DNA from: Naegleria gruberi
Lineage: Eukaryota
Length of the DNA stretch: 64,000 bases
Assembly: GCA_000004985.1 (NCBI GenBank)
Contig: GG738924.1
Direction: 5' to 3' (one strand)
Below, piece after piece: positions 2,827 to 62,642 of the stretch. The notes beneath the pieces are model-generated. The model saw only the letters and a program-made list of their open reading frames with translations, was not told where the DNA came from and searched no databases. How positions within the stretch are numbered: the first letter of the stretch is position 1; every line of letters starts with the position of its first letter. The position numbers and the translations under genes are program-made.

Positions 2827-4584
2827 TTATTGTTGGTTTTTCATCAATTTACCTTTAACATAATCAAATGTTTTTGGAAAGAATCCTTGTTCCTCACTAT
2901 TTGGCTTTACATAAGCATCATAGATTCCATGTAAAACTTCATAAATGTCAGCAACGGTAAAGTTGTAATCTCTCACAAAATCCACAAAATCTTGCATTTT
3001 TTCTGAGATTTCCTTCTCTCCAAAAGTGTAATAATGTAATGGTTTCATGGCAATTGAAGCGGAAATAAATTGAATAATAAACTTGAGCTCCTTATCACAC
3101 AAGAATGCACCACAACCCCAATGTCCAGTACTAATCTTTTCATAAATTTCCAAATCATATAATTCCTTATCAACATGACAAAAGGCAGAGTAGGCCTTTG
3201 TAATTTCTCTATCAATGTGTTCAACTTGCCATTGTTCCAACAAATTGTAACGTGTATAATATTTGGAATCAAATGCCACAATTTGTGAGTTGAAAGACAA
3301 TAAATTTCCATCATACAGTTGTTCATAGTCCTTATCCTGATAATCTCCACCATAGAGCAATGATTTGGCATATCCTTTGTGTGTACTGAATTGTTCAGAT
3401 CCTACAATGAGAATAGATTCATTGTCAGCCATTCTTTCAATAAATAAACGAGAGACAATAGTTTCAGGACTCAATACAAATCTAATTTCCTCTTGTACTG
3501 CACCTGCTCTCAATACACCACCTCCAATATACATATTGGCAAAATCAGCATGTAAAGCTTGTGGACAATCTTCAATAGATCCCTCTGGGTGGATTTGCAT
3601 TTCAGAAAATGTACTTCCTTCCTCATCAGCACTTGCCAACAAAAGTGATTCAATATGGGTTGGATCTACTATCTTTCTAATGAAATGAACATAGCCCATT
3701 CTTGCAATTTCTTCATATCCTCTCTCAGAAAGTCTTTCAAAGTAGTGAATAATCATCAAGAGCTTGCTAGCACTTGCTTCGTGTGGATTATTGATCAATG
3801 AATCCAAATTAATGCTTGGCATGAATAAATGAGGACCATCTCTAGTGTCTCCAATTCTTGGGAAGGTACAGAAAAAGCTGTTTGCTAAAATACAAGCACA
3901 TTCCAATTTGGATAATTTAACACACTTGGAATCAAGTTGAAAAGGTAATTGGTTCAAATCTCCAAGAATAGGCAGCATACCACCATTCTCCTGAATGGTA
4001 GAATGCTTCTGGCTAGAATGGTTGTACAGTTCAGTTTTAGCTCTTGGACCTAAAATAATTGGTGTATCCAAAACAAGTTTCTTGATAAACTCGACAGTCT
4101 CAAAAAACTTGCTTCTTCCTTCCCAAACTTGTCCACATGATGATCCCAACAAGTAGGTCAAATTATTTTCCGCACTGATCACAAATTCATTAAATCCACT
4201 CTTTGATCCCTTCTCAGTTGATCCGTAGACAATATTTTGTACAGTTCTCAAAGTCTCACACAGAATACCTTCATCATTAATATCAGTGCCATACAACAAT
4301 TCGCTCACTTCATTCCAATAGGCATTCATGTGTGGTAAATTTACAAAATTAATCCTTCTATTATCACTCACAAATTCCCTCTGATTGCCTCTCCGATGAG
4401 ATTGAGATGATGATGATTGGTGTGATGATTGTTGCTGTTGTTGTTGATAGTATGTTTCATCTTTCTTTTTACGACCCGATGATCGAGTAACGTGTTTTCC
4501 AGAGTGAGCATTTTCCGAATAGTTTGATCCCTTCGAGTAGAAGGCATCACCACCTCCATTATCAAAGTTGTTTCTTCTTGGCAT
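2827..4584 (-). CDS. PARG: Poly(ADP-ribose) glycohydrolase (PARG)
   Basis: 585-aa ORF with ATG at 4584. Contains the PARG catalytic signature GGGVLRAGAVQEEIRF (GGG-x-QEE) and the downstream TGHWGCGAF motif. Confidence 0.88.
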   Translation of the reverse strand: MPRRNNFDNGGGDAFYSKGSNYSENAHSGKHVTRSSGRKKKDETYYQQQQQQSSHQSSSSQSHRRGNQREFVSDNRRINFVNLPHMNAYWNEVSELLYGTDINDEGILCETLRTVQNIVYGSTEKGSKSGFNEFVISAENNLTYLLGSSCGQVWEGRSKFFETVEFIKKLVLDTPIILGPRAKTELYNHSSQKHSTIQENGGMLPILGDLNQLPFQLDSKCVKLSKLECACILANSFFCTFPRIGDTRDGPHLFMPSINLDSLINNPHEASASKLLMIIHYFERLSERGYEEIARMGYVHFIRKIVDPTHIESLLLASADEEGSTFSEMQIHPEGSIEDCPQALHADFANMYIGGGVLRAGAVQEEIRFVLSPETIVSRLFIERMADNESILIVGSEQFSTHKGYAKSLLYGGDYQDKDYEQLYDGNLLSFNSQIVAFDSKYYTRYNLLEQWQVEHIDREITKAYSAFCHVDKELYDLEIYEKISTGHWGCGAFLCDKELKFIIQFISASIAMKPLHYYTFGEKEISEKMQDFVDFVRDYNFTVADIYEVLHGIYDAYVKPNSEEQGFFPKTFDYVKGKLMKNQQ

Positions 4585-4754
4585 TTTTTTTTGTATTTTC
4601 TTGTTTTGTAAAATCTCAATTCTATTAATACAAATTTCTTTATTAAATTCCTAAATTGACAATCAATAAATTGTAATTAGAAATTTCATCATGTTTACTA
4701 CAAGTTCAATATAAAGAAGAGGGAGTGAAAAATAATCAAGTGAGTGCAAATTTT

Positions 4755-7700
4755 TTATTCTTTATTTTCTCGCAAAGTCCAAATTTTCTTGGATTTACTG
4801 AATCTTGCAATCTTTTGTAAAAGTTCTTTAAAGTAAATGACATCATCTCCTGTAATATAACTAAAATGCTTTCTTACTTCATCAGTTGTGGCTTTTCCAC
4901 GTTTTTGGAAAAAGGAAACAATGTTATCCACCATTTTGTTTGAACTTTTGTAAACTGGTTTGAGTTCATCAGCCAAATCATTTACATTATTTACAGATCT
5001 AGGTTGATCGCTCATAATATCTTGTTTCTTTCTAATGTTTGCCAAAAGTACAGACGATGCTAATCCACCTTTTGGATTGGTACCACTACTACTTCCCAAA
5101 GCAGATACCCTGAGCCCTCCTAATCCATTTTGTCCTGTGAAAGTTGGTACAGATAAAGGCATGCTTTTTCTTAATTCTCCTGATTTTTTTAATTCCTTAA
5201 CAGCAATTTCAGCTATTTGTTTTGCTTGTTTTTCCAAAATTGATGTTTCAGAACTGGTAGTATTCACAACAGAGTCATGATTGAAAATACTTTTAACAGA
5301 CTTTTCGTCAAATAAGCATTGCAAAATATAAGTCTCATCCTTTTTTGAGTCATCTTCTGAGCCCTTGAATTTTTCTACACGATATTCCACATCTTTCTTC
5401 TTCTTCTTAATTGTTGGCATGTCTTGCCTTAAAATTTCACTATTCGAGAACAAATTACCAGTCTCTGTATTCTCTTCATCATCGTCATAAGGAATAGATT
5501 TGTTGCCATTCTTTCTTCTCACAGAGTCATATTCTTTACCAAGAGTAAATAACTCATAAAGATCATTGGACTTGAAAAATCTCTTTTGTCTAGGATCCTT
5601 GAGAACCTTATTCGAAAGAAATTGTTTGAAAATTTGTCTATGATACATCTTCTCTTCAATAGTACCACTTGTCATCAATCTGTAAACAGTAACTTGTTTA
5701 GTTTGACCCAATCTCCATGCTCTTTCGAGAGCTTGAAGATCTGTGGATGGATTCCAGTCAGGATCGAATAAAATAATTCTATTTGCACCAATTAAATTCA
5801 CACCCAATCCTCCTACCTTTGTTGTTAGTAAAAACACAAAGATTTTGTCATCACTATTGAATTGATTAATCAGTACGCTTCTCTCCTTTACAGGAGTGTC
5901 GCCATCCATTCTAGAATAGGTATAGTCTCGTTCTTGTAAAAATGGTTCAAATACATCTAACATTTTCTTACTTTGAGAAAAGAGTAATACTCTATGATTT
6001 TGTTCCTTCCAAAGACTCAATAGCTTTTCTACAACCATCATTTTACCTGACTTTTCTACTGCACCAAAATCATCAGGTTTCTTCTCAGTACATATCAAAT
6101 CAGGATGATTACAAACTTTTCTGAGATTAGTAATGGCTTTGAAAAGTAAATGTTCTCCATCAAGGGTTCCAGTAACTTCTCTACTCTTCAAATATTCATC
6201 ATATATCTTAACTTGTTTGTCTGTCAATTTACAAAAAATTACATTTTCCTTCTTTTCAGGTAATTGATGCTTTACATCTTTCTTCATTCTTCTTAAAAGA
6301 TATGGCTTGATTAAATCTCTCAGTACACATGAACATTTGTAAGCTGTTTGTACTTGAAATTTGGTTGCATTCGAATAACCACCCTGTGTGATAGGAATTG
6401 AAAATTGGGTGAGAAATACTGGAAGAGTTCCGAGCTTTCCAGGATAACAAAAATCAAATAGTGACCAAAGCTCTTTCAAATTGTTTTGAATTGGTGTACC
6501 TGTCAAAATAATTCTGTGTGGTGTTTCAAATCTTTTACATGCTAATGTTAAGGCAGCATCAGGATTTCTAATCTTGTGACCCTCGTCCAAGATAATATAT
6601 CCCCACTTTTTAGAAGTAAGCACGTCTTGATAAATTCTTAAAGATTCATATGTTGTGATAAGAACACCATTAGGGCAGCTGGAAACCTTCTCTATGAGTG
6701 ACTCGAAATTGGCTTTAGTTCCTTGAGATGTGTGCATAATCACAACTCTAAGCTCTGGCCACCATGTATTAATTTCTTCTTGCCATTGCTTCATTACAGT
6801 TGCAGGTGCAATAATGATAGAAGGTTCGAATAATCCACTAAAGTGAAGTCCAGCAAGGAAAGTGGTAATTTGTACAGTCTTTCCCAATCCCTATAACATG
6901 TTATAAGGATTGAACCAATAAAACTACTTACCATTTCATCTCCCAGTATTCCTCCAACTCCTTGTCTATTCAATTCGCACATCCACTTAAGAGTAGTCTT
7001 TTGATATCCAAATAACTTGTCATAAATCTCTTTAGGGATTGAGTAAGATCCTGCAATTTGTATACTTGGTCCATAATTCACTTTAGTAACTTCCATTTCT
7101 TCGCCTTCATCACTGATTATAAACCTTTTAGTCACTTCTCTTGTTTCATAAAATTCCTCCAATCTCTTTTTATAGTATTCATCATTCGAATCGTCCTCTT
7201 TAAATTCCTTTTTCATTGGTACTTTTTCTTCCTCTTCTTCCTCTTCTTCCTCGTCATCCTCTTGATTTTCCTCATCATCTACATAATCTTCATCATCTTC
7301 GTCCTCCTTCTTGATTTTCTTTGGTTTTTTATTCTTATCTTGTTCTGGAGCCTTTCGTTTACCTGGTTTAGGCAATTGAAAATATCATTGGCTTCATTAG
7401 AAGGCATATTATCAAACGGAGTAATGATACCTGTTCTAATTAATCTTTCTCTTTCCGATTCATTATTATCATTATCAATTACATTTAATGATTCTCTAAT
7501 TTCTCTTCTATCTTCCAATTCTTCGATCATTTCGTCTTTCTTATCCAAGAGAGTTGCAATTTTCTTCTTCAAACTCTTTATTTTCTTTTCATCACTACTC
7601 GAAAGTGATGATCGTTTATTCAACTCTTTTAATTCCTTTTCATACTTTTCGATTTTTGCATTTAATTTATCAATTCTGCTGTGTTCCTTTTTTTCTAATA

Positions 7701-7929
7701 CTTTTTGATTTTCTTCAATTTGTTTATTCACTTCATCCATAACATTCTTTTCAATGTCTTCGGTTCTGAAGGCAGACACTCCCAACATTGATAAATCGTC
7801 TTCGGATGGTCCAACCGACCGAAGTGATGTATTTTCATGTTGTTCTTGTTGTTCGTGTTCATTTGTTGTTGAATTTCTTCCTGAAGATGATGATGAAGAG
7901 GAAGCTACAGCAGAACGACTGCGCAGCAT
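4755..7929 (-). CDS. ERCC6/Rad26 (CSB)-like SNF2-family DNA-dependent ATPase. Exon1 is 7363..7929 and the tentative intron 7319..7362 (GTAAAC..AG, 44 nt; the alternative is a +/-1 frameshift). Exon2 is 6932..7318, the intron 6891..6931 (GTAAGT..TATAG) and exon3 4755..6890.
   Basis: ATG at 7929. The N-terminal coiled-coil and TPFD motif are followed by an acidic stretch. The 41-nt intron splits the Walker A codons, so that GGILGDEM|GLGKTVQI is restored on splicing. DEGH box ([10 protein letters not shown]). HELICc region [45 protein letters not shown]. The ORF track shows three pieces: 7279..7929, 6794..7375 and 4755..6887. Confidence 0.85.
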
Positions 7930-8139
7930 TTTTTTTCTTGGTTTTGGCGTACTTGAACATTTTTATTTTTGGGTTACAAAATACACTTCGAATTTTCGCT
8001 GGAACTCAAAGAAAATTTGCAGTAATCGGTGGTTTCACACTTTAAAAAAAAACGAGTTCTCATTCCAACAAGTAACACCCACGCAGTTGTTGTAGTTTGG
8101 AAGAGGAACTTTGAGATTTTTGCAAAAAAAAACAAAAGT

Positions 8140-8174
8140 GGAGTCATAGGGAATCGAACCCTAGACCTTCTGCA

Positions 8175-8205
<31 letters not shown>

Positions 8206-8211
8206 AACCCC
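8140..8211 (-). tRNA. tRNA-Ala (anticodon UGC)
   Basis: The reverse complement reads GGGGTTATAGCTCAGTTGGTAGAGCGTCTGCTTTGCATGCAGAAGGTCTAGGGTTCGATTCCCTATGACTCC. It is a cloverleaf with a G3:U70 Ala identity pair, anticodon loop CTTGCAT carrying TGC, T-loop GGTTCGATTCC and A73. A T-run terminator on the minus strand lies just 3' (+ strand 8120-8137). Confidence 0.9.
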
Positions 8212-10743: not shown

Positions 10744-11141
10744 TAACAACAACAACAACATGATCAATAGATTTGTGTGGACACGTATTTTGTAATTTAT
10801 ATTATTTAATTGTAAATTTTAATAACATTGAAGCTTTAACGAATTGATAATGCAGGATTATTTATATCATCATCATCATCTTTGTTTCATCAATATTCAT
10901 TTTCTAATTGACTATAGTATTCATTCATCTTTTCATATATCCCATTCAAAGGAAAGGCTAAATGCTTGGGATTTAATAGTTCCTCCTCTCTTCAACATGT
11001 TGTATTTATCAATAATTGAAACAAGCCTTTGATTTCACTGCTCTGAGGAAATTCTCACTCGACCTTATCAATTTTTACTACAGAAAAAAAACATCAAACG
11101 AGACTTCCACCACCGATTGAATTCATTCAACATGTTCTTCA

Positions 11142-13261: not shown

Positions 13262-16200
13262 ATGAAAAAGATATCAACCTTTTTAAAGAGGAAGGAAAGT
13301 GAACATAGATCAAAGCATGCCAGCAATAGCAGCTCTGGGAGTTCTCCAATCTCTCCGAATCATCAAGGCTTTGTGATGGTTGAACATGAAGACGCCATTC
13401 TAATTTCTAAAAACAGCAGCACAACAAGTTCAACAGCTGTGGAATGGAATGAAAAGCTTGAAGAGGATTTCAAGCAATACTTGGACAAAACCTTCAAGAA
13501 TCAAACTGAAACAATAGAAAAGTTGATGGCCCTTCCACCAAAGAAAAAGATGGAAATTCTCAAATTGAAGCAATCTCAGATCAGTTCTCAGAACAATATC
13601 TTACTTCACTTGGAAACAACAATGAATAACATCAAACATCCGCTCTCCACCTTGACACTACATACGCAACTGAAGGAATTGAGAGTTGTCTTGTCAAACT
13701 ATGCCGAAGCAGAAGAAGCATTCATCAATAGAGGTGGTGTTGATTTCACCATGAAATCTCTTTCCAATAATCTCGGTAATCTGAATGGAGCTGCAGACGA
13801 GAATAACAAACTCTTGTTTGCTGAAATTACCATCTCTATTATTATGATCTTGACTCAAATTTGCAAAAACAATGAAGGATTGGAAAAGTTTTTAGAATAT
13901 CCAAATAGTATTGAAGAAATCTCCAAGGCTCTCTTACTGGAACATGAAGATAAGGGTCAGAGGAACTCGATATATTTCCTATTGTCATCATTGTGTTTTT
14001 GTAGGGATGGTACCTACGTTCCACAAGTTTATGAATCTGTTAAGAATTTGTCAAAAATTAGAGGTGAAGAACAATTCTTAACTGTTGTGCAGCATTTGAG
14101 AGAGGCCAACAGTTTAAAGAGCAGATACATCATTCTGGCCTTTATCAATATTTTGATGAGGCAAGCTCCTGTTCAATTCAGAAGAGAGCTAAAGCAACGA
14201 TTTATCAGCGCAGGTGTTTATACTGAGGTTAAAAAACTGGAAAAGATTAAAGTGGAAAATAAGGATACAGAGGATGCCCTCAAGCTAAGCAACCAAATAG
14301 AAATTTTCAACAAGATTATTTCTGGAGATTTAGAAGAAGATATTTTTGATGATTTGAGAGAAATTGTCGAAGAATTAGAAAATTCTAATGTTCCTCTAGC
14401 TGAGGGAATTAAGGCAGTTTCTGAAAAGATGTTGGAGAAATGTAATCAAACTTCGTAAGTTTTAAACAGTTTCAACATCATTAATTATTTATTCAACAAC
14501 AGATCAAGTTTGGAATGGGTCAATGATATCAAAATAATTTTGGAGGGAAGTGAATCTGTAAACTTGTTAAAAGATAGAAATCTCTCACTTCAAAAACAAG
14601 TGGATACCATTACAAAAGATAATGCACAATTAAAAGATCAAATGGAAAAGCTAAAAGTCAGAATTGAAGCTTTGGAGAAGGCACCACCAACAGTTATTGT
14701 GAAAAAGGTTGCAGTTGTAAGACAAGTTGGAGAATTGAAATCGTCTGGTTCCGGTAGTAATCTTGCAGGTTTAGTGGAATCCAATTCACCGACAACATCA
14801 CCTCCTAATATTTTTCCAGATGATACAGTTCCCTCTTGTAACAGCTCTGTTCCACCACCTCCTCAAGCTAGCTCTGTAGTGCCTCCACCTCCAGGAATGG
14901 GAGGTGTTGTTCCTCCACCACCAATTGGTTCAAGCTCAGTTCCTTTGCCTCCCATGACCATCAGTAGCTCTGTTCCTCCTCCACCTGTGGGGTTCAATAG
15001 TTCTGTTCCACCTTCGTCATCTATTCCTTTACCACCAGTAATGGGAACTGTTCCACCAAATTCTGCCATTCCTTTGCCACCAGGAATGAATAGCTCTGTT
15101 CCAATGCCTCCAGGTATTCCTGTACCACCAGGAATAGAAATGCCAGTGGTAGGAAGTACTGTTCCTCCTCCTCCAGGTTTTGGTGGCGTTCCTCCTTCTG
15201 GGTCTGTTGTTCCTCCACCTCCAGTTGGAATGACTAGCTCAGTACCATTACCTCCAGGAATGGGAGTATTGTTCCTCCACCGCCTTTCTCAAATGTACCA
15301 ATGCCTCCTGGTTTTGGAGGTGTTCCACCTCCTCCTGGAATGAATGGTACTGTTCCAGTTCCTCCACTAGGAGTGGGAATGCCACCCCCACCAATGTTTG
15401 GATTTGTACAAACACCACCTGTTATTGCAAGTGCTCCAAAACTTCCAGACATACCTAAGAAGAAGGCTTCTGTGCCCACTAAGGACGTAAGACTCAACAA
15501 ACTAGATAATAACAAACTTCAAAAGTCTGTTTGGATGAAGAAGAACATTCATGCCAAGTTATTCGATATTGATATTCCAGAAAAAGAATTAGAAGATATG
15601 TTCGCTCAAATTTCTAAATCCCCTAGTGTAGGTTTAACTCCAGAAAAGTCAGAAAAACCAAAGGATACAACAATAAGTTTATTGGAAGGACCTAGATTGC
15701 AAAACGTTTCCATCTTTATGAAATATCTCAAGATGCCTTCAACTCAGTTGGTTGAAAAGATAATGACCATCTCTGATGATTTTAATGAGGAATCAATTGG
15801 AAAATTGTTGAATCAAGTTCCTAATGAAGATGAAATTCAAAGACAAAATGATTTTGATGGAGATGAAGCCACATTGAATGAAGCCGATAAGTTTATCAGA
15901 GCCATGATGAAGGTTCCGAGACTTGCTTCCAGATTGAAATGTTGGAATTTCAAGTTGAAATATGTTGAAACAAAGGCTTGTATCAACCCAGACTTGGAAA
16001 CCATCATTTCAACATGTGCTAGTTTGGTAGAATCTGAAAAACTTCAAGAATTGTTTGCTGTCATTTTGGCTTTCAGTAATTACCTTAGCAGGACTGGTAT
16101 CCATGGATTCAAATTGAACTCTCTCCAAAAATTAAAAGAAACAAAAGGTAATGCTAAGAACATTACGCTCCTTGATATGATTGTCAAGCATATTACAAGT

Positions 16201-17103
16201 GCAAAACCAGATATTCTCAAAGTTAAAGAAGATTTGAACATGTTGGAAAGGGCTGCCAGAGTTGAAATGCAAACATTAGCAGACAAGATTGACAGTATGG
16301 AAAAGTCTATTGCTCTTCTGAAAACAGAGATTCAATACTATAGTAAAAATCCACAGCCAAACGATAGATTCTTGGAAGTTTTTGGATCCTTCCTGAATGA
16401 ATGTGAGGATGAAATGAAACTTATTAAGGAAAAGCAACAAAATATGGATAATCAAATTTCAGGGGTTGCTGAATTCTTGGGTGAAGACCCAAACACTGTA
16501 AAGAAGGAACCAAAGGAAATGTTTTTAATGTTAAATTCATTCATTACTGACTTGTACAAATCAGTAGATAATTTGAAAAAGGAAGAAGAAAAGAGAAAGA
16601 AGGAAGAAAGCAAGCTTGCTAAGGAGAAAGACAATCGTCCATCATCCCCTGTAGTTACAGTTGGTGGATTGAAGGCATTTAATTCATTCAGAACACCATC
16701 TAAAGTTCCTCTCATTGCTGAAAATGCAGATGTTTCTGTAACACCAAGCAGTCCTGTAACTCCAATTATTATTTCCTTACCAGATAGTGAACCAAGTGTG
16801 GAAATCACTTCTCCAAGTACACCAATTCAAGAGAAGCAAAATGAGCCAACTATCGAATTAACCAAGAATGGACATGATTTGCTTTCACCTTCGATGCAAA
16901 TGGGTAATTCTTTCGAAGAAAATAGTCCATCAAGACGTAGTGGTCACATTAGAAATCCTTCCATTCTCATGTCTCTTGAAAAGTCCCTATATGAAGGTTC
17001 TGCCTTATTGTCCCCATCTACAAAGACAAGAAAGAGAGGTGGAGGAATGATGACAGGTTTAGATATGAATGAATTGAGTGCTGCATTAAATAAAAAAAAG
17101 TAA
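13262..17103 (+). CDS. Formin (Diaphanous-type: GBD/FH3 - coiled coil - FH1 polyproline - FH2). Exon1 is 13262..~14454, the intron ~14455..14502 (GTAAGT..AACAG) and exon2 ~14503..17103. There is an apparent -1 frameshift near 15262-15266 inside the FH1 region.
   Basis: ATG at 13262. The FH1 has many VPPPP/LPP repeats (14830-15420). The FH2 core (15600-16700) is strongly formin-like (LNQVPNEDEI.., KFIRAMMKVPRLASRLKCWNFKLKYVE, LFAVILAFSNYLSRTGIHGFKLNSLQKLKETKGN..TLLDMIV). The ORF track gives three pieces: 13262..14458, 14510..15343 and 15301..17103. The 15343/15301 overlap is a frame change inside proline codon repeats (GMG | IVPPPPFSNVPMPPGFGG). Confidence 0.88.
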
Positions 17104-18550: not shown

Positions 18551-20683
18551 ATGACTCACAAGAATAACTCTACCACCAACAATACCACAACGTCTTCATC
18601 CATTGACCAAAATGCTACCACTTTTCAATTTCAATTTGTCTTTGACAAGGTCATGCTCAACCAAAGAACATTGAAATTATTCAAAGAATTTCTAATGAAG
18701 AGTTTACATTCCCCAGAAGCTATCCTCTTCTATGAGAAAGTTCTCGAATTTAAATCATTCGAAGGACAAGCTCTGACTGAACATCAGACGAAACTTGCTT
18801 AGAATATTGTGGAGAATGTTATTTTTGTTGGCTCCGCGCATGAAATTAACATTGGAAAAAGAGAGAGAAATCAGGTACTTGAGAGGGTGAAGAGATTATT
18901 AGGTAATAACCCACAAAGAAGTGAAGTTGAGTTGCAATATTTTTCGAATAGTAAGCAAACGCTCAATAAGAAAGAAACCGAAAGTGATGAACAATCAGAA
19001 ACTTCAACAAATAAGCAAAAGAGCTTTTCTTCGATGAATGAGACTTCTACCTTCATAATGGTCGATCCAATTAACATTTTTGATGAAGCATTAGTGACAG
19101 TTAAGAGACAACTCAAAGAAGACGTGTTTCCACTTTTTTTGAGAAGTGACAGATTTCTGACATTTTGTAAGAAGGCATCGAGAGAAACTCTGGGAGAGAT
19201 TGGTTATGAGAGAAGACAGTGTCGTCAATCTGGCAACGTTTCTATTGAAGATTTTTGGAAATTTTACAGAGCTGATTGTGAATCTCTAAATGTCAATGGT
19301 CAAGATGTCAAATTTTTAAGCTCTTTATCAATAGATAGTTCTGATTGGACTCTATTAGAGCAAGAATACTTTAAAAAGAGTTGTTTTGCAACATTTGTTT
19401 CATCTGAAACTCATTGCATGATTAGACCAGAAACTTCCGAATATAGAAATCCAAATTCACAACATATTTACAAATGTACAGGTGTCATTAATCACTCAAC
19501 TGAGAAAGTATTGAAAGCTCTGACAGATTCTCACTTTATGGCCACTTATGATAATAATTTAGCTGTTTGTGAATGCATTGATTTTGTAAATTCTCAAATT
19601 CAAAGCAATTCTCTTCCTGAATCATTATTCGAATTGGACGAAACTGTTCAATTCTCCTCCTCTATCATTCTACAAAATTATCCTTTCAACTGGCCACTTT
19701 CTGGAAGAGATTTCCTCACCAGTCAAACAGATGTCTATGAAAAATCCACTCAACGTTATTTCATTCTCATCAAATCTGTCAACCATCCACTTGCCAAACC
19801 AAAAGAAGGAAGTGTCAGATCTTATCTTGTCGGTGGTTGGATTATTCAACCAATTTCTGATGAATTCTCACGATATACTTTGGTCAATTATATGGATGTG
19901 AATATGAGTGAAAAATTAGTTCAGCAATTTCAACTGAGGAGAGGAAAGAAATTATTCCATTCGTTGAATAAGATATTGAAAGAGATGGACAGGAGTTCAA
20001 TGAATGAGGTGAATGATTCGTGTGGTTTATTGGAAACTTTGGACGAATTTTTGGATTTATACGAAATTAACATTGATGACCAATATAGGAAAGTGAAGAA
20101 ACTAAACAAGATGGAAATGAAGGAACTTCTCACTCCAAGAAAAACTCACCTCGCAAGCACTTCTACCTCAAATCTCGACCACCTTTCGAATAAGATTATT
20201 CGATTGACCTACATTTCCAAATGTAAGAAAAATTTCAATTCTACAGAGCTTGACAAGATTGCAACCACTGCAACTCGATTCAATTCCAGTATCAACGTAA
20301 CTGGTCTCCTTCTCTATTGTAAAGAAGGAATTTTCTATCAAGTATTAGAAGGTGAAAAAGAATTAGTTTCAAATCTATTCGAAAAGATTAAGAAAGATTC
20401 GAGACATTTCGATGTGAAATGTGTCAAAATGGAAACAGATTTATGTGATCGTGATAGACAATTCAAGGGATGGGCCATGAACACAGTTAACTTGGAAACG
20501 TCAGATCATTTCTTTGCTGATTTTATGAAAGAATTATTAGTGACAGTTTCAAAGATGGAGCTCAATAACATGACAGAAGATCAAGCTGTTGGGTTTATAT
20601 TCAAGACATCGAGGCAGATGTTTGAGAAGAGTAGGGAGAGCGGATTTGTTTCGAGATTAGGTTCTTGTTTTTGTATGAAATAA
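18551..20683 (+). CDS. RGS - START-like - BLUF multidomain protein (putative blue-light sensor). A single in-frame TAG at 18800..18802 interrupts the RGS domain, so this may be a pseudogene, a readthrough site or a sequence error.
   Basis: ATG at 18551. The RGS domain spans the stop (..LKLFKEFLMKSLHSPEAILFYEKVLEFKSF..TKLA*NIVENVIFVGSAHEINIGKRERN..IFDEALVTVKRQLKEDVFPLFLRSDRF). The middle region has a START/Bet v1-like fold pattern (VRSYLVGGWIIQPISDEFSRYTLVNYMDVN). The C-terminal BLUF domain is IIRLTYISKC..INVTGLLLYCKEGIFYQVLEGEKELVSNLFEKIKKDSRHFDVKCV..FKGWAM, with the photoactive Tyr, Gln and Trp present. The track ORFs 18551..18802 and 18809..20683 share one frame. Confidence 0.8.
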
Positions 20684-21065: not shown

Positions 21066-24000
21066 ATGAGCAGCGTTGAATATCAGCACGGCAATGAAGT
21101 GCTTTTCATAAAGAAGGGAAGTAGTGGCGAGTCAACCAACAACAATAATAACGCGATGACCACAGAAAGTAATGATCATAAGGCACAGGAATTGGCTCAT
21201 CACGGCGATTCGAAGGATGAACATGTTGATAGTCAACATCATCACCCGAAAGGACCGTTTACATTAACGGCAGATGAATTGTCAGAGATGCATCAGAATA
21301 AGGATTTGAAAGGGTTGCAAAAGATGGGTGGAATGTCTGGTTTGATGAGAGATTTGAAAACTGATGCAAAGAGGGGGATTGCCTGGAAGTCGAATTATCA
21401 AAGTTATGATGAGAGGACGAATCTGTATGGTCTTAATGTGTATCCTGAACCGCCGGCTAAAGGTCTCTTCAAAATATTCTTTGAGGCTCTATCAGACGAA
21501 ACTCACATTATTTTAATGATATTCGCCTTCATTTCGATGGTGTTGGGATTGGCATTTCCTGAATCTGAAGAGGAAAGACCAATTGGTTGGATTGATTCGT
21601 TTGCAATTTATATAGCTGTAGCTATTGTTTGTGTGGTTACAACCGCCAACGACTATTCGAAAGAGAAAAAGTTTAAAAACTTGTCAAGAGAATCCAAAAA
21701 GGTAATGGTTAAGGTTATTAGAGATGGGGAAAATTTTAGCGTTCTCACTGATGATATCAGAGTTGGAGATATTGTTGAAATTGAACAAGGAGATGGTATT
21801 CCAGCTGATGGGCTCTGTATTGAATCAAACCATTTGAAAACAGACGAATCTGTCATGACAGGAGAACCAGATTTGATTAAGAAGAATACAACAGAATTAA
21901 TTTTCTTATTGAGTGGTTGTACAGTTGCTGAAGGTTCTGGAAAGATGCTTGTTACAGGTGTTGGTGTTGGAAGTGAATGGGGAAGAACCTTGCAAAGTTT
22001 GAAAGAAGCCAATGAAGAACAAAGAGAAACTCCTCTCGAAGCCAAATTAGATAAGCTCGCCATCAATATTGGTAAAGTTGGTACTGCATTTGCGATTGGT
22101 ACTGTTACCATTTTGATTTTGGCCTTTTGGATTAAGAAATTGATGTACACTTCAACTTGGGTTGAGGCCTCATCAACATTTGAAGAAACTTGGCAAGAAA
22201 AGAATGTAGTTGATGTGGTCAAGTACTTTATTATTGCTTTGACTATTGTCGTCGTTGCTGTCCCTGAAGGTTTACCACTTGCTGTCACAATTGCTCTTGC
22301 TTACTCTGTTCGTAAAATGATGAAAGATCAGAATTTAGTTAGACACTTGGCAGCTTGTGAGACTATGGGTGGTGCTAACAATATTTGTTCTGACAAGACT
22401 GGTACACTTACTTTGAATCAGATGAGAGTTACCCAAGCTTATTTTGGAGATCGATTCTTTGGTGAGCAATTGAGCTCAATACTGTTGACATTGAAATCAC
22501 CACTGTTGCAAGTAATCATTGATGGTATTGTTGCCAATTCAAAGGCAAACTTGGTCAAGGGTGATGACAATAATAAGAATAAGGAGTATGCCACTCAAGG
22601 AAGTAAGACTGAAGCTGCTCTTTTACTTTTACTTGTCAAACATTTGAATCAGACCATTGACAGTTACAAAGATAGAAGAAATGAATTGCTAAGTGAAGAA
22701 AGAGGCTCTCACCTCCAACTTCCATTCAATTCCAACTTGAAGCGTATGAGTACCATCGTTACAAACTCTGAGGGAGAAACCAGATATCGTCTCTTCACAA
22801 AGGGTGCTTCTGAAATTGTCCTCAAATTGTGCTCCTATCACATGGCTAGTGATGGTTCATTGAGAAAGATGGATTCTGAAAAGGAAGCTGAAATGATGAA
22901 ATGTATTGAAGATATGGCTAATCAAGGTTTGAGAACAATTTGCTTGGCCTACAGAGATGTCAATCCAGAAGTTGAATTCTCATCACGAGCTGATGAAGAA
23001 AATTATTTAGAAAATATTGATCCAGTTACCTTGGAACAAGATTTAGTATGTATTGGTATTGTAGGCATTAAGGATCCATTGAGACCTGAAGTACCAGCAG
23101 CTATTGAACAATGTAAGAAATCAGGTATCACTGTCCGTATGATTACAGGTGACAATATCTTGACAGCCAAGTATATTGCCAGAGAGTGTGGTATCTTGTC
23201 GAAGGATGGTATTGCTATTGAAGGCCCAACATTCAGAAAGATGACTCCAGAGCAAATTGATGAGATTCTTCCAAAATTACAAGTTATGGCTCGTTCCTCA
23301 CCAACTGACAAGTTTATTCTTGTAAAGCATTTGAGAAAGAAGGGTAACGTTGTTGCTGTGACTGGAGATGGTACCAATGATGCTCCAGCTCTTAAAGAAG
23401 CCGATGTTGGATTGAGTATGGGTCTTAGTGGAACCCAGGTTGCTAAGGAAGCTTCTGATATCATTATTTTGGACGATAACTTCTCATCCATTGTTAAGAG
23501 TGTGTTGTGGGGTCGTTCCATTTACGAGAATATCAGAAAGTTTTTAGTTTTCCAATTGACAGTCAACGTGGTTGCTTTGATTTTAACAATTGTTTCTGCT
23601 GTTTCGTCTGCTTTCCAACATAATTCTTCCTATAGGCCACCTTTGAGTCCTGTACAAATGTTGTGGATCAACTTGATCATGGACACGTTTGCAGCTCTCG
23701 CCCTTGCCACAGAACCTCCAATTCCAGAACTTTTAGACAGAAAACCTCACGGAAGAAAGGATTCCCTCATTACAATGAGAATGTGGACCTTCATTGCTGC
23801 TGAATCAATCTTCCAGCTCACTGTCATGTTCACACTCTTCTATGGAGCAACCTCATTCAGAGGACTTTCATTCAGCTTAGCCAGAAATGATGCTGAAATG
23901 AGAACCATCATTTTTAATGCTTTCGTATTTTGTCAAGTTTTCAATCAATTCAACGCAAGAAAGATTAATTTTGAGTATGATATTTTCAGAGGAGTTTTCA

Positions 24001-24317
24001 AGAGTTTCTGGTTTATTGGTATCACCATAATGATTTTCATTTTACAAATTGCCATCATTAACTTTGCCTATTATGATCCAATTCTTATTGGTTTGGGTAA
24101 GAATGATGGTTTGACTGCCTCCAATTTTACCCAGACCATTCCATTGAATTGGTATCAATGGGCCATAACTATTTCCATTGGTTTCATCAGTATTCCATAT
24201 GGCTTTTTAGTGAGATTCGTCAGCAGAATGTTTTTGAAATTATTGAGCTTGAAGAAGAATAACAGACAAATTACCAGTGATGGCTACGAGGAAACCTATT
24301 CCAAAGCAAGTGAATAA
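21066..24317 (+). CDS. Plasma-membrane-type Ca2+-transporting P-type ATPase (PMCA, type IIB)
   Basis: Uninterrupted 1083-aa ORF with ATG at 21066. P-type motifs are present: TGES-region, CSDKTGTLT phosphorylation site, KGASE, MITGDN, VAVTGDGTNDAPALKEADVG. It has ten predicted TM segments and strong overall similarity to PMCA/ACA pumps. Confidence 0.95.
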   Translation: MSSVEYQHGNEVLFIKKGSSGESTNNNNNAMTTESNDHKAQELAHHGDSKDEHVDSQHHHPKGPFTLTADELSEMHQNKDLKGLQKMGGMSGLMRDLKTDAKRGIAWKSNYQSYDERTNLYGLNVYPEPPAKGLFKIFFEALSDETHIILMIFAFISMVLGLAFPESEEERPIGWIDSFAIYIAVAIVCVVTTANDYSKEKKFKNLSRESKKVMVKVIRDGENFSVLTDDIRVGDIVEIEQGDGIPADGLCIESNHLKTDESVMTGEPDLIKKNTTELIFLLSGCTVAEGSGKMLVTGVGVGSEWGRTLQSLKEANEEQRETPLEAKLDKLAINIGKVGTAFAIGTVTILILAFWIKKLMYTSTWVEASSTFEETWQEKNVVDVVKYFIIALTIVVVAVPEGLPLAVTIALAYSVRKMMKDQNLVRHLAACETMGGANNICSDKTGTLTLNQMRVTQAYFGDRFFGEQLSSILLTLKSPLLQVIIDGIVANSKANLVKGDDNNKNKEYATQGSKTEAALLLLLVKHLNQTIDSYKDRRNELLSEERGSHLQLPFNSNLKRMSTIVTNSEGETRYRLFTKGASEIVLKLCSYHMASDGSLRKMDSEKEAEMMKCIEDMANQGLRTICLAYRDVNPEVEFSSRADEENYLENIDPVTLEQDLVCIGIVGIKDPLRPEVPAAIEQCKKSGITVRMITGDNILTAKYIARECGILSKDGIAIEGPTFRKMTPEQIDEILPKLQVMARSSPTDKFILVKHLRKKGNVVAVTGDGTNDAPALKEADVGLSMGLSGTQVAKEASDIIILDDNFSSIVKSVLWGRSIYENIRKFLVFQLTVNVVALILTIVSAVSSAFQHNSSYRPPLSPVQMLWINLIMDTFAALALATEPPIPELLDRKPHGRKDSLITMRMWTFIAAESIFQLTVMFTLFYGATSFRGLSFSLARNDAEMRTIIFNAFVFCQVFNQFNARKINFEYDIFRGVFKSFWFIGITIMIFILQIAIINFAYYDPILIGLGKNDGLTASNFTQTIPLNWYQWAITISIGFISIPYGFLVRFVSRMFLKLLSLKKNNRQITSDGYEETYSKASE

Positions 24318-45094: not shown

Positions 45095-45371
45095 GTCAAG
45101 TGAGAATTGTGAAAAAGAAATTGGATTAATATTCAATAAAGAGAATTTGATAGTATTTATGATAGTTTCGAATATTCTATCGAATGGCTAGGTGTTACGA
45201 CTAAATGAACACCGAATATACGGCATACGAGGAATAAGAACAAAATGAATGTTTGACAAATCTTTTCAGAGGACAGGATGTTTAAACAATTGTTACAATA
45301 AATCCGATTTCAGACGAATCTTCACTCAACAACATTCAACAGAATTAAAACTTAAAAAAAATCAACACGCC

Positions 45372-46926
45372 ATGGACTCATCCACTCAAATTCGTCGTTT
45401 ACAAGTTATCAAATCTCATTTATATCAAGAGAATTCATCTTGGTCAACCAACATTGATTCTAATAATTGTGCAGCAACTTCTTCATGTCCACCTTCACCA
45501 ACACTTCTGGCCATGACCAAGGAAAAGATGGGAACAGGAATTCCCAATCAGAGACAAAAATTGGCCAAGTGGAATGGTTGGGATACAAGGACACAGATTT
45601 TACAATGAATTCCAAGAGGGAATGTTATGTGACTGGTGACAGGTACGTGATTGCTGGACAGTGTGTGCCAAATTTTCGTCCATGGTTTGAGAATTTCACT
45701 GGTTTGAATACAAAATTCGAATCTTCAATTCAATCATGGTCAGAAATGAAACAAAAAATTGAAAAGCCAAATATTTGTGAAAAATTTATTGAGGATTTAA
45801 GGCAAGTCAAATGTTACAAATATTTGACATTTGATGATGAGGCTCGTTTGATGCATTCTCATGGACATTGTTGTCAAGAGATTTATCAATTAAGATTTGG
45901 AAGATATGTTGGTAAATGTCAAGATTGTCACTCCAAAGGGAACTTGGTTTCTTCCATGTAATGTCCCACACAAGTCAACTGGACCAGATTTGATGCAGCT
46001 ATTTATGGGATCTGAAGGAATTTTGGGAATTGTGACAGAAGTGACATTAAGAGTAAGGAAATGTCCTGAATGTCAAGTTTATGGCTCTGTGTTGGTTCCT
46101 GATTTTGAGGCAGGAGTTGCTTGTCTTCATGAAGTTTCGAATAGAAGAGTTGCTACTGCTTCGATTCGTCTAATTGACAATTCTCAATTTCAGTTTGGTC
46201 AATCACTAAAACCTAAACAAGAAAGTAAGCTTGAAGGCCTTAGTGATTGGTTTAAGGGTTTGTACGTTACTAAGGTTTGTGGATTTGATAAGGAAAAGAT
46301 GTGTGTCATTACTTTATTATTCGAAGGAAGTCAATCTGACATTGACAGGCAACAGAAAATTATTTATGACATAACTGCTAAATATGGAGGACTTGTGGCA
46401 GGTGCTGAAGCTGGTTATCGAGGTTATTTACTGACCTATGTCATTGCTTATTTGAGAGATTATGGTTTCAATTATTATTTCATGTCAGAAAGTTTTGAAA
46501 CTTCAGCTCCTTGGTCAAGAGTCGTTCCAATAATCAAGAAAGTAGAAGAAAGAGTCAAAGAAAGTGCCAAGCAACGAGGATGTTCCAACACCATGGGTTT
46601 CGGCTCGTGTCACTCAAGTATACGAAACTGGTGCCTGTATCTATTTCTATTATGGATTCATCTTTAGAGGATTACAAGATCCAATTAAGGCATTCTCAGA
46701 GATTGAAGCTGAAGCAAGAGATGAAATCTTACTTCAAGGTGGAAGTTTATCTCATCATCACGGAGTTGGAAAGCTCAGAAAGGAATGGATGAGTCAAGTG
46801 GTGGGAGATCAAGGAGTTGAGATTTTGAAAAAGTTAAAGAATAATGTTGATCCTGATAATTTGTTTGGAAATGGAAATTTGGGATTGACTAGAGCTGATT
46901 TGAGTATTTCGGCAAATATCGAATAA
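45372..46926 (+). pseudogene. AGPS: Alkyldihydroxyacetonephosphate synthase (AGPS, peroxisomal ether-lipid enzyme) pseudogene or degraded copy. It has two frameshifts and lacks most of the FAD-binding PCMH domain.
   Basis: Three overlapping frames (45249..45608, 45467..45961, 45897..46667, 46564..46926) together read like AGPS. The N-terminal PTS2-like RRLQVIKSHL and KWNGW are present, but a missing G in a G-run breaks KWNGW|GYKD (~45582). HGHCCQEIYQLRFG is followed almost directly by EDMLVNVKIVTPKG (~45890), so the ~150-190 residues normally between them (the GGG..FAD-binding core) are absent. A +1 shift near 46578 separates ..ESAKQRG from VPTPWVSARVTQVYETGACIYFYYGF. The conserved C-terminus GGSLSHHHGVGKLRKEW..DPDNLFGNGNL is intact. 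Confidence 0.75.
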
Positions 46927-48223: not shown

Positions 48224-48311
48224 GGGTGGTTAGCTCAGCGGTAGAGCACCGGATTGCAAAGTTATTTGCAGCAGACATCCGATGGTCAGGTGTTCGATCC
48301 ACGTACCACCC
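48224..48311 (+). tRNA. tRNA-Cys (anticodon GCA) with a ~17-nt intron 3' of position 37
   Basis: GGGTGGTTAGCTCAGCGGTAGAGCACCGGATTGCAAA[gttatttgcagcagaca]TCCGATGGTCAGGTGTTCGATCCACGTACCACCC. The acceptor stem is fully paired, the anticodon loop TTGCAAA has U33 and A37, the T-loop is TTCGATC and the discriminator is U73 (a Cys identity element). The intron contains TTGCAG, which can pair with the anticodon region. A TTTT terminator follows 8 nt downstream. The isotype call depends on the intron placement. Confidence 0.7.
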
Positions 48312-48631
48312 TACCTTTTAATATTATGCAATAGTAAATAATTTATTTATTGTGTTGTCAACGATTCCTTAGTTTCGATCTTTAAATTTGTTGAAAAATA
48401 GAGAGAATTCTATTTTCTTAAATATTGCCTTGAAGAATATTGATTTGACTTGTAATTTGAAATATGAGTTGAAAAGTAAAATAGTAAATTGAAGTATTAG
48501 GGGAAATCAGATTTCTATCCAAATTTGGAACCTTACATCTAACTTTTTGAGTTTGTTCCAAATGAAAAACTATTCGAAATGGTTTAAATTATCACCATCG
48601 TTGAACTATTCCATACAACAAAAACAAAAAA

Positions 48632-49870: not shown

Positions 49871-51757
49871 TTAATCTTGTAAGATTTTGTTGGCCTTTCT
49901 CCAATTTTCAACAATGATCCTCACTGATTTGTTACTAGATTTCAATCTTTCGAATAGATCGGTCATGTTATTGAGACATGCAACTCGAACAATGTCAAAT
50001 AATGTACTGGCTATGAGTGAATCATCATTCACACTCAGAATTTCATGTTCAATTCTCAGATAAATTTGGTCAATGTTGGCAATATTCAATTCTAATGGAG
50101 ATCCTTCTTTCAGGTAGGTTTTCAATATTTTCATTGCCACCAGTTTCTTATTCTTTCGTTTGGGGGATTTTCTGAAATTTTCAATATCTCTATATGCTAA
50201 AACATCTTCATTACAATAACTCCTTGTCGCAAAATCCAATAACAATGCAAATGTCTTCCTATTTTTCAAAAATAATTCAAGTTCTGATTGAGCATACTCA
50301 GCTTGATGATTATCATTACGAATGGCATAAATGACAGGAAGAATGACTGAAATAATTATTTCCAATAATGAATAGGTCAGTAGAGTAAATCCAAATGGAA
50401 CGAAATAATCTGTCAAGAATCTGATAATCTCAATTTGTCCACTAATTATATAAGCAAGTGATAAAGCCACTTGAATAAATACCAAAACAAAAGCTTCAGT
50501 CTTAATTGACCAAGTATCTCTATCAACAAAGAAGAGAATGATCAAAAAGCTCACTTCTATCACAATGTAGAGTGCTGCTTCTGCTCCCAGCAATATAACA
50601 GTATTTGAGGTTGTAACACATCCACTATTAAATGCAAATGGACTCACATTCCACAAGAATATTCTCTTTCCACTATTACTATACGAAAGTTCATCAATTC
50701 CTCCCAATAAAGCCCAAATAGATAAGTGAATAATGAATGAAATTGTATAAGTGATTGCAATAAACTTGTAGCTCACCAAATATGAAAATATTTTGAACTT
50801 TTTGTCAGAGAAAATTGCAGAAGTGTTGTCAATGTCAGAAGAAGTGACCCACGTTTTTTGATCTTGTTCATCATGGACATCTTCTCCAGTTTCTGGAGTA
50901 ACCCGTGTTGTTGTAATCTGTTCTGAAGTTTGTGATGCATCGTTTGGATTTTCTTGTGATATATTTGAAATGGTACTCGAGTTATCAAATGTTTTTGGTG
51001 TCAATAATTCTGGTTGACTTGTCTCTGATAATTCCGTAGAAGATCCATGTTGTATAGATGCTAATGGAAGAATGGTAATACCTTTCAATTTGTCATCCTC
51101 TTGAACTTGTTGATCCACATTTTGTTCCTTTTTCACATTGGTCAATTGTTGTGGTTTTTCACTTTTCGTCTGAAACATTTGTGCCTTCTTCTTATTGAGT
51201 AAATACATGAAATAAATCCTCAAACATCGAAATACAGTTGGCAGACACAAACTAGGAATAATGATGAAAAACGAAAAAGTGTACAAGAAACATGGAAATA
51301 TTTTCCTCGAAATTGTAAATCGTAGACATGTAATGACCACAAAAGCCAAACTAGCTGATATTGTCAGTAGCATGTAAACTGGATTCCTAGCTTTGATGTG
51401 TCCACTCTTTCTCTTCCAAATAACTCCAACAGTTCCAAAAAGTGCCAACGTCAAATAGAGTGTCAAGAAGATGGATGCGATGATTGGTGTAAAGATGCTG
51501 TCTGGGCAAATATTATTTACCACTGTTGCATTGTATCCTTCACGACTCAAGTCTCCTAGATTGAACAATCTTTCGTCACATATTGAATAATTTGTTGTTG
51601 AGGTATTGTTGTTGGAAAGTTGTTGTTGTTGAATAGAATAAATTGTTGTTGCTATTGGATAACGATAATGAAAAGATTCTTGAATAAATGATGAAAGAAG
51701 GGTAAATATTCGAAATTGGGTTTCATTATTTTGACCTGCATGATGCAGCTGGTACAT
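49871..51757 (-). CDS. Seven-transmembrane receptor fused to a C-terminal RGS domain (7TM-RGS, AtRGS1-like architecture), copy 1 of a tandem pair
   Basis: 628-aa ORF with ATG at 51757. It has an N-terminal Cys-containing ectodomain (SICDERLFNLGDLSREGYNATVVNNICPDS), seven hydrophobic helices with a long Ser-rich third loop and a C-terminal RGS domain (KNRKTFALLLDFATRSYCNEDVLAYRDIENFRK..ILKTYLKEGSPLELNIANID..LFDIVRVACLNNMTDLFERL). Confidence 0.8.
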   Translation of the reverse strand: MYQLHHAGQNNETQFRIFTLLSSFIQESFHYRYPIATTIYSIQQQQLSNNNTSTTNYSICDERLFNLGDLSREGYNATVVNNICPDSIFTPIIASIFLTLYLTLALFGTVGVIWKRKSGHIKARNPVYMLLTISASLAFVVITCLRFTISRKIFPCFLYTFSFFIIIPSLCLPTVFRCLRIYFMYLLNKKKAQMFQTKSEKPQQLTNVKKEQNVDQQVQEDDKLKGITILPLASIQHGSSTELSETSQPELLTPKTFDNSSTISNISQENPNDASQTSEQITTTRVTPETGEDVHDEQDQKTWVTSSDIDNTSAIFSDKKFKIFSYLVSYKFIAITYTISFIIHLSIWALLGGIDELSYSNSGKRIFLWNVSPFAFNSGCVTTSNTVILLGAEAALYIVIEVSFLIILFFVDRDTWSIKTEAFVLVFIQVALSLAYIISGQIEIIRFLTDYFVPFGFTLLTYSLLEIIISVILPVIYAIRNDNHQAEYAQSELELFLKNRKTFALLLDFATRSYCNEDVLAYRDIENFRKSPKRKNKKLVAMKILKTYLKEGSPLELNIANIDQIYLRIEHEILSVNDDSLIASTLFDIVRVACLNNMTDLFERLKSSNKSVRIIVENWRKANKILQD

Positions 51758-61521: not shown

Positions 61522-62642
61522 AATTAAAATTGTAATATTTATTAACGTCTCTTGTATCGTAAAGACCTGAGAGACGAGGTCTACAACCAGTAAGTTTCGG
61601 TTCAGCGTTTAAGTGTTATGGGTTGACGCTAAGTGGTTGGTTAGACTGAGCCTGCCTGTGGTAGGCAGAGAGGTATTTCCTGTTAATAGTGAAGCTTGCA
61701 TTGGGACGGTTGTACCACACTGAGTTCTTGTAGCAATTTTCCAAATAAATAGCTAGTGCTTTGTAGACTTCTAGGGCCACATTCTTAGGTATTCTTTTGC
61801 GCTTAGACCAGTTAAGCCAGTCATTACGGGAGCAACGACCATCAAATTCTATCCTAAGTTGAGAGGATTCTGAGATATCAGGAGGGAAACGAATCTTGTT
61901 AAGGCTAAATTTCTGGGAGATAGCGTCCCATGTGGCATACAGTTCATCCTTTTCAGGATTGCATTTGGGACAAGTTTGGAATACGTGGGTCCAATCTTCC
62001 TTGACATTACATTTGTCACAAATACTGTCGTTACCTAGTAAAATTGAGTGGTGGAGATTAAAGTAGAGGAGTCTTTGCTGATAATAAGACAAGAGAGAGT
62101 TTCTCCAGAAGGAGAGAGTGCTATTATGCCAATTATAGTCATTGTCTAATTGGCCCAACTTATTAATAATTTTCTTGGATCGCTGAGTTTCAATGATAGC
62201 ATTTCTAAGGTTGGAGACAGGCTTGTGATTGGTACGGTTACACAAGACCCATCCATTATCTGTGGATTTGAAGTAATATTTCAGATCTTTCATTGTAGCG
62301 GCAGCATTTTTCCACAGTGAATCTGTAGTTTCACCCTTGAGCGCCTTATTTATCATGGCTCTTGCGATTTTTTGGGTGATAGGAGAGGTAGAATTGACAA
62401 ACCTACAGACAGATGCCATCCTTTCCACGTGACTTATATCAACTGGAGATGAAAGCCCAAGTCCACCCTGGGATTTATCACCATATATAACGGCTTTAGA
62501 GAGCCTGTTGTCACATCCAATTCTTTTCTTAATAATTCCACTAATTTTGACTTCCAATTTTTCCAATAGTGAAAGTGGAATAGCATCTACGCTTGAGAGG
62601 TATCTAGGTACAGAAAGCACCTTAGATAATATTACGTTCCTC
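61522..62642 (-). mobile_element. 3' fragment of a non-LTR (LINE) retrotransposon ORF2 (RT C-terminal thumb region + Cys-rich C-terminal domain), truncated by the assembly gap
   Basis: ORF 61616..62620 (minus) has no start. It continues into the N-run and contains SQGGLGL..VERMASVCRF (LINE RT C-terminal motif) and a CCHC-like cluster (ICDKCNVKEDWTHVFQTCPKC). A 3' UTR-like tail at 61522..61615 abuts the transposon TSD. Confidence 0.6.

Follow-up and report, generated by a model that had tools for sequence, protein, structure and literature searches.

The locus considered here raises the question of why a long coding frame of Naegleria gruberi contains one stop codon inside a conserved domain, and whether that stop is a real mutation, an error of the draft assembly, or a codon that is decoded, bypassed or spliced out. 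The frame lies on the + strand of the window (the whole stretch of DNA analysed, 64,000 nt of contig GG738924.1, which belongs to a 196,593-nt scaffold of strain NEG-M). Genes are densely packed in the AT-rich sequence of the window (about 34% GC), and they contain a few short introns, which start GTAAGT or GTATGT.

A single stop in an RGS–START-fold–BLUF frame

Translation of 18551–20683 gives a single frame of 711 codons from the ATG at 18551 to the TAA at 20681–20683, with one internal stop (710 sense codons and the internal TAG, with TAA as terminator). The stop is the TAG at 18800–18802 (+ strand), codon 84, in the protein context HQTKLA-stop-NIVENVIF, and codon-usage scoring keeps the frame across it; the description in an earlier note on this DNA, of two same-frame ORFs with only a TAG between them, is accurate, and no other stop occurs in the 711 codons. 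The protein segment that spans codon 84 reads TKLA-x-NIVENVIFVGSAHEINIGK, with the residues NVIF specific to the window. In the whole window the gene is alone in having two long coding-strand ORFs joined by a TAG, and the other coding-strand ORF pairs joined by a single stop are explained otherwise: the junctions at 43285 and 14456 fall inside canonical GTATGT/GTAAGT introns, and at the junction at 11030 the 66-codon upstream ORF scores as non-coding.

The order of domains given in the earlier note, RGS–START–BLUF, holds, on Pfam evidence for the RGS and BLUF domains and on a fold match for START. Pfam identifies RGS (PF00615, E 2.7e-11) at residues 31–123, a match that spans codon 84 and so bears out the statement that the TAG lies within a conserved RGS block. 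RGS chains from the PDB align on both sides of the stop and also supply the C-terminal RGS helices at residues 170–211; the RGS domain therefore comprises residues 31–123 and 170–211 (18641–19183, +) and is split by a low-complexity insert specific to N. gruberi. In the PDB alignment the TAG stands at the start of helix alpha-5, which reads KAEEIYKAF in RGS1, and is placed opposite Glu. BLUF (PF04940, E 6e-25) is matched at residues 550–643 (20198–20479, +), and the motifs of its putative flavin site (RLTYIS, FYQVLEG and KGWAM) are intact in the sequence.

START was not detected by the Pfam HMM, even at E<=1. The middle of the protein was instead assigned by structure prediction: a family alignment of 14 sequences served as input for an AlphaFold2 model of the downstream ORF (626 residues; mean pLDDT 72.7), in which a helix-grip domain resembles STARD5 (Foldseek E 3.8e-10, TM 0.80), with further START matches to STARD10, CERT and STARD4; the same model also matches BLUF structures, e.g. 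OaPAC. The predicted START-like lipid-binding fold occupies approximately 19280–20002 (+), corresponding to model residues ~160–400 of the 626.

A second copy in the NEG-M assembly and the ancestral codon

The evidence that bears most directly on the stop comes from a second copy of the 5' part of the gene. An exhaustive HMMER search of a library of 1.84 billion representative proteins, with the downstream ORF as query, returned a 376-residue protein that is 93% identical over the matched stretch and reaches 84 residues upstream of the query start. This is XP_002668848.1/EFC36104.1 (NAEGRDRAFT_76231), deposited as a 'predicted protein' of N. gruberi NEG-M and encoded on a separate scaffold of 40,920 nt. 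Compared with window 18551–19513 it is 92% identical over 321 residues with the frame open; its residues 1–316 align to 18551–19507, and at the position of the stop it reads TKLAQNIVE. After residue 316 its likeness to the RGS-START-BLUF gene ends, the model being chimeric: it closes with 60 residues that are identical to the C-terminal end of the P-type ATPase encoded by the next gene of the window (21066–24317). Placed on the window, its apparent splice runs from a GT directly behind NHSTEK (19508) to a CAG acceptor at 24134. As the ATPase tail is present in the model, gene order on the second scaffold matches that of the window for these two genes, and the model spans a stretch of about 4.6 kb which that scaffold lacks or holds as a gap.

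The two copies differ only within codons 16–163. In this diverged block (18596–19039, +) 20 amino acids are substituted, the stop stands against Gln, and indels the size of whole codons occur at three positions; its flanks are protein-identical, with zero differences in the next 155 codons or in the 60 ATPase codons (protein comparison). Variants specific to the window copy lie close to the TAG at 18782 and at 18815–18824. The 440-nt block must contain at least 26 nucleotide differences in addition to the in-frame indels (about 6 per 100 nt), of which at least 6 fall within 45 nt of the TAG, and the indels at all three positions are whole codons. The TAG itself is a minimum of one base away from a Gln codon (CAG), which is probably the codon of the sister copy. 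Beyond the diverged block the sister contig remains protein-identical to the window for about 470 nt, which is roughly one Sanger read. For five other window genes no second NEG-M protein was found at >=90% identity, and thus a long haplotig with full gene models is unsupported; a search with the upstream neighbour gene for such a long haplotig also gave no match.

The direction of the change at codon 84 was read from an alignment of the sister copy and 11 more distant relatives, among them the orthologue from Willaertia magna (KAL9658754.1), which is 43% identical and has the full architecture from RGS to BLUF. In these 12 relatives the column of the stop contains Q, Q, Q, K, K, A, A, S, L, F, F and F, and no stop; the three Q residues belong to the sister copy, the W. 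magna orthologue and one other relative. The presence of Gln in both the sister copy and the orthologue indicates that TAG is the derived state and Gln the ancestral one. Six residues after the stop, 11 of the 12 relatives (including the sister copy) have an aromatic residue and the window has Val; both of the polarisable changes at constrained sites thus fall on the window copy. The earlier note had expected a Lys, Gln or Glu codon at the stop and had proposed comparison with alleles or orthologues, and in that comparison the second NEG-M copy and the nearest orthologue both have Gln.

Origin of the stop codon

Taken together, these comparisons make it probable that one of the two diverged NEG-M copies has acquired a real nonsense mutation by a single base change, in the simplest case from CAG to TAG (Gln84 to amber). 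Most likely the copies are not paralogues but the alleles of a heterozygous diploid; Naegleria has been described as mainly heterozygous diploid (PMC9928731). The 40.9-kb scaffold would then represent the other haplotype's version of a short and highly diverged block, the remainder of the gene being so nearly identical between haplotypes that it collapsed into the window's scaffold. The identical stretch of ~470 nt would be expected of a haplotig that was assembled around the diverged patch and whose scaffold runs over sequence in which the identical haplotypes were collapsed. On this model there would be one intact RGS-START-BLUF allele, with Gln84, composed of its own N-terminal block and the shared downstream sequence, and another that terminates after 83 residues and would be a null allele or a very young pseudogene, from which, at most, a START-BLUF protein without its N-terminus might be made by initiation at a later ATG. 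The long downstream frame would owe its unblemished state to the recent date of the mutation and to being shared with the intact copy, and not to any decoding of the stop.

Among the three options of the earlier note (a recent nonsense mutation or polymorphism, an assembly error, or programmed readthrough) the first gains from the Gln in the second copy, and the last loses. Its judgement that this is not an old pseudogene stands. Its supporting argument, that downstream coding potential is preserved, is right in that the ORF is intact, but the likelier reason for the preservation is sharing with the intact copy, which is protein-identical past about 19040.

The locus has the general features of heterozygous nonsense alleles and young unitary pseudogenes in draft eukaryote genomes, i.e. 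a stop one step from a sense codon, in a conserved domain of a frame that is otherwise intact, together with an intact sister sequence, an ancestral sense codon and the standard code. It is unlike the typical nonsense allele in that allelic status is here something that we infer, and in that the differences are confined to a 440-nt block, an unusually sharp mosaic. Instead of alleles, the two copies could be recent segmental duplicates of which the second is truncated. The likeness of the sister model is lost after residue 316, as would also fit a truncated duplicate.

The assembly might itself be at fault, since a base-call or consensus error in a draft built from Sanger reads would leave the true codon as CAG and the gene intact; we assign this account a modest chance. 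The draft is gapped (1357 N near the window end), its formin gene shifts frame at about 15263, in the proline-rich FH1 region, without a credible intron, and in a split-haplotype block each copy would have roughly half the read depth. A further lesion is found in the ERCC6/CSB-like gene (4755–7962), which is in the same 90% cluster as XP_002669658.1 of NEG-M and 100% identical to it over the exons. Here the reference is without a G at 7384 that is present in an independent N. gruberi contig of another isolate (ENA ERZ929261), which results in a frameshift; this contig is 99.2% identical to window 4217–8082 and has one continuous 378-residue ORF, a T/A difference lies 9 nt from the missing G, and the deposited model masks the lesion with an artificial 44-nt GTAAAC..AAAG 'intron'. 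The 1-nt deletion in the reference therefore means that errors of draft quality are possible. ERZ929261 is labelled as a metagenome and contains N. gruberi contigs that are 99.2% identical to other parts of the window; no product of the RGS-START-BLUF locus was found in it, scans of JGI metagenomes for the locus with protein patterns and exact DNA patterns gave no match, and no other assembly of the locus was found. However, the TAG is a substitution, and the doubtful lesions in other genes are indels of one base, which is how Sanger reads usually err. It lies among real copy differences of ~6 per 100 nt, a density that errors could not plausibly reach, so that a true difference is much the likelier beforehand; the change from F to V nearby, at a conserved site, points to a real relaxation of constraint on the window copy. 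The position of the stop amid dense real differences and whole-codon indels thus favours a real variant over a base-call error.

The remaining accounts ask whether a functional product is nevertheless made. The first in-frame ATG past the TAG (Met162, 19034–19036, +) is a possible re-initiation site, and if the locus functions in a short form, from Met162 or Met171, the product would be a START-BLUF protein without a working RGS domain, the N-terminal two-thirds of which would be missing from a protein begun at Met162. The 549-codon ORF from ATG 19034 has its START fold and BLUF motifs intact, and the copy-specific amino-acid changes all lie upstream of codon 164, with none in the next 155 codons, a distribution that fits constraint on the downstream part only but is explained equally well if a boundary between haplotypes, or one left by gene conversion, lies there. 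The RGS domain is retained in all relatives that share the architecture, and the 15-billion-protein collection contains no transcript or protein product for the START-BLUF part; a functional short form is accordingly given only a small chance. Programmed readthrough or recoding, e.g. by insertion of Gln by a near-cognate tRNA, would restore the full-length protein and would suit a lone stop in an otherwise perfect 711-codon frame where the expected residue is Gln. Near-cognate decoding of UAG usually inserts Gln, and a purine at +4 after a stop favours termination. The context TAG-AAT-ATT has such a purine and is neither of the UAG-CAR-YYA type nor another known leaky motif, the 120 nt downstream fold like shuffled sequence (z -0.64), and the stop is not conserved, as the sister copy and the orthologue encode Gln directly. 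An Rfam scan of the window found only two tRNAs (Ala-TGC and an intron-containing Cys-GCA), with no element at the locus and no suppressor tRNA, and among the papers searched none reports readthrough in Naegleria. The site resembles the readthrough sites of TMV (UAG-CAR-YYA) and MuLV (UAG with a pseudoknot) in having an in-frame UAG followed by a long open frame, but it is without their leaky context, downstream structure and conservation of the stop. The readthrough suggested in the earlier note is therefore unsupported by context, RNA structure or conservation, and we regard it as very improbable. Decoding of UAG at low efficiency, again with near-cognate Gln, would yield an 83-residue N-terminal fragment and a little full-length RGS-START-BLUF photoreceptor; if true it would be a regulated readthrough switch in a heterolobosean, and it is just as improbable. 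A weaker form of this proposal is that the TAG allele may now encode a photoreceptor of START and BLUF only, starting at Met162. Removal of the TAG by a short spliceosomal intron is still less to be expected. Short introns (40–155 nt) are present in the genome, and in-frame GT..AG pairs that give a stop-free product do exist, the best being 18740–18802 (63 nt), so that the earlier note, in denying that any GT..AG pair could take out the stop, is wrong in the literal sense. Its conclusion that the stop is not intronic stands, because the donor of this candidate is GTTCTC and not the GTAAGT or GTATGT of the verified introns of the window and the paralogue. Splicing there would also cost the protein VLEFKSFEGQALTEHQTKLA, a segment that agrees with the RGS consensus and that the sister copy, the Willaertia orthologue and the PDB RGS alignments all retain as coding sequence. 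All 196 in-frame GT/GC..AG pairs were rejected, as none has the local donor consensus and all delete conserved RGS sequence. A variant nuclear code in which TAG is read as sense can practically be dismissed, and was rejected for several reasons: there is one in-frame TAG in about 15,000 codons of long ORFs, the terminators of 26 long ORFs are TAA in 20, TGA in 3 and TAG in 3, ORFs lengthen little when TAG is read through, measured against the gain from reading through either of the other two stops, and standard-code translation of five ORFs reproduces exactly the NEG-M proteins deposited for the 196,593-nt scaffold. N. gruberi NEG-M uses the standard code, and nothing supports an intron, readthrough or codon reassignment.

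Annotation of the locus, its relatives and its significance

The window locus appears to have no deposited protein model. No protein at high identity in a 15-billion-protein collection covers the START/BLUF part of the gene, and exact look-ups of plausible products of the locus gave no match. The only paralogue found is 32% identical (ENA protein P0001; NEG-M model XP_002681899.1/NAEGRDRAFT_45871); a word-index protein search returned this paralogue alone and missed the 92% sister copy, so its negative results are unreliable. The paralogue has a GTAAGT intron inside its RGS domain, which is complete when an intron of 154 nt is removed, whereas the deposited 1284-residue model uses a farther acceptor, by which the middle of the RGS domain is removed, and is fused to an upstream BTB-domain region. 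Since the models of these genes are missing, chimeric or mis-spliced, inventories of Naegleria BLUF photoreceptors drawn from the public proteome are incomplete or distorted.

The stop codon itself is an ordinary lesion of little consequence, most likely marking one more null allele or young pseudogene in a laboratory amoeba that is heterozygous and propagated clonally, and less likely an assembly error. The weight of the finding is moderate and lies in the uncharacterised gene family and the surrounding annotation problems rather than in the stop: the RGS-START-BLUF family, on which no paper was found (RGS, START lipid-binding fold and BLUF together), may deserve attention in work on heterolobosean blue-light signalling and in optogenetics. 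Its nearest parallel is the fungal RGS-LOV photoreceptor BcLOV4, in which light controls membrane-lipid binding (PMC6099885), as both combine RGS and a flavin blue-light sensor in one polypeptide, and the predicted START lipid-binding fold between RGS and sensor in the N. gruberi gene invites comparison with the lipid binding of BcLOV4. The two differ in that the N. gruberi sensor is BLUF and not LOV, that a START fold is present, and that the gene belongs to Heterolobosea and is known from sequence and a structural model. With the BLUF photoactivated adenylyl cyclases (OaPAC, bPAC and the Naegleria PACs) the protein shares the sensor, which is 39% identical to that of OaPAC over 120 columns with a model rmsd of 1.7 A, but unlike them it has no cyclase domain, the partners of BLUF being RGS and START.

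Genuine gene decay is also seen elsewhere in the window, in keeping with a real nonsense variant at the RGS-START-BLUF locus. An AGPS-like gene (45249–46926) has two frameshifts and is missing about 120 residues; in an alignment to guinea-pig AGPS (4BBY) the breaks come at residues 96/97 and 557/561, and the stretch from residue 203 to about 324 has no counterpart.

A second isolate and the ERCC6/CSB-like gene

Independent sequence is provided by ENA assembly ERZ929261 (run ERR1078381, PRJEB11402), which was deposited as a metagenome and includes Naegleria gruberi contigs (L001 and L002) ~99.2% identical to NEG-M. Over the 2040-nt ERCC6 ORF the two sequences differ at five synonymous and no non-synonymous positions. 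The N. gruberi in this assembly is a second isolate, and its contigs offer a possible check on the NEG-M reference. Comparison with L002, which covers the ERCC6/CSB-like gene (4755-7962, minus strand), shows, within 7319-7384, that a G at position 7384 is missing from the reference, and that a further T/A mismatch between reference and contig occurs at 7375; across the same region L002 carries a single uninterrupted ORF of 378 residues. In the deposited model of this gene (XP_002669658.1) the frame is repaired by an artificial intron of 44 nt (GTAAAC..AAAG).

Other frame lesions in the window

The formin gene (13262-17103, plus strand) switches frame within ~15254-15270, where the proline-rich repeats of its FH1 region change frame at ~15263 (..LPPGMG / SIVPPPP..); the pattern resembles the loss of a single base after ATGGG. 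No credible intron accounts for this switch: the sole candidates that restore the frame have weak donors, and their removal would delete FH1 repeats. The alkyl-DHAP synthase (AGPS)-like gene (45249-46926, plus strand) changes frame at ~45590, in a G run, and again at ~46581, and when measured against PDB 4BBY it lacks ~120 residues of the FAD-binding domain; it is either a multi-lesion pseudogene or a mis-assembly.

Deposited models of the RGS-START-BLUF gene copy and the paralogue

The deposited NEG-M model NAEGRDRAFT_76231 (XP_002668848.1) is chimeric. It comes from a second copy of the 5' part of the RGS-START-BLUF gene, carried by a scaffold of 40,920 nt, and fuses residues 1-316 of that gene with the 60 C-terminal residues of the adjoining P-type ATPase (window counterparts 18551-19507 and 24135-24314). 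On that scaffold the two fused parts are probably separated by a gap or brought together by a deletion of 4.6 kb. In the paralogue, a relative with 32% identity, a GTAAGT intron within the RGS domain (L001 1278-1590) has two in-frame acceptors. The 154-nt version of this intron retains a complete RGS; the deposited model of 1284 residues (XP_002681899.1) takes the 312-nt version, with loss of ~52 RGS residues, and is also joined to an upstream BTB/POZ region.

The RGS-START-BLUF family and remaining features

The RGS - START-fold - BLUF architecture of window 18551-20683 recurs in 13 representatives at E<1e-30, among them Willaertia magna; some relatives have RGS-START without BLUF. A literature search found no paper describing the architecture, to which the fungal RGS-LOV photoreceptors are a parallel. 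When this gene was used in a word-index protein search, the 32% paralogue was the sole match and a 92%-identical NCBI protein was missed, to be recovered by exhaustive HMMER search; null results of the word-index search are therefore not counted as absence. A second RGS-domain gene, NAEGRDRAFT_59903 (D2W253, 513 aa; 54348-55889, plus strand), is sited 34 kb downstream and has no BLUF domain. Pfam detects only the N-terminal part of its RGS (E 3.8e-4), with a score slightly below the gathering score (21.3 vs 23.9 bits).

Two neighbouring minus-strand ORFs of 628 and 643 residues (49871-51757 and 51826-53757) resemble each other at their C-termini and may thus be a tandem duplicate; TAA terminates one of them and TAG the other. 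Two tRNA genes are present, at 48224-48312 (plus strand) and 8138-8211 (minus strand): one is Ala-TGC, and the other, with anticodon GCA (Cys), is 89 nt long and contains an intron, and was found by Rfam and missed by ARAGORN. GC seems to fall to 0.12 over the final 2 kb of the window, an effect of a scaffold gap of 1357 N within ~62400-64000.
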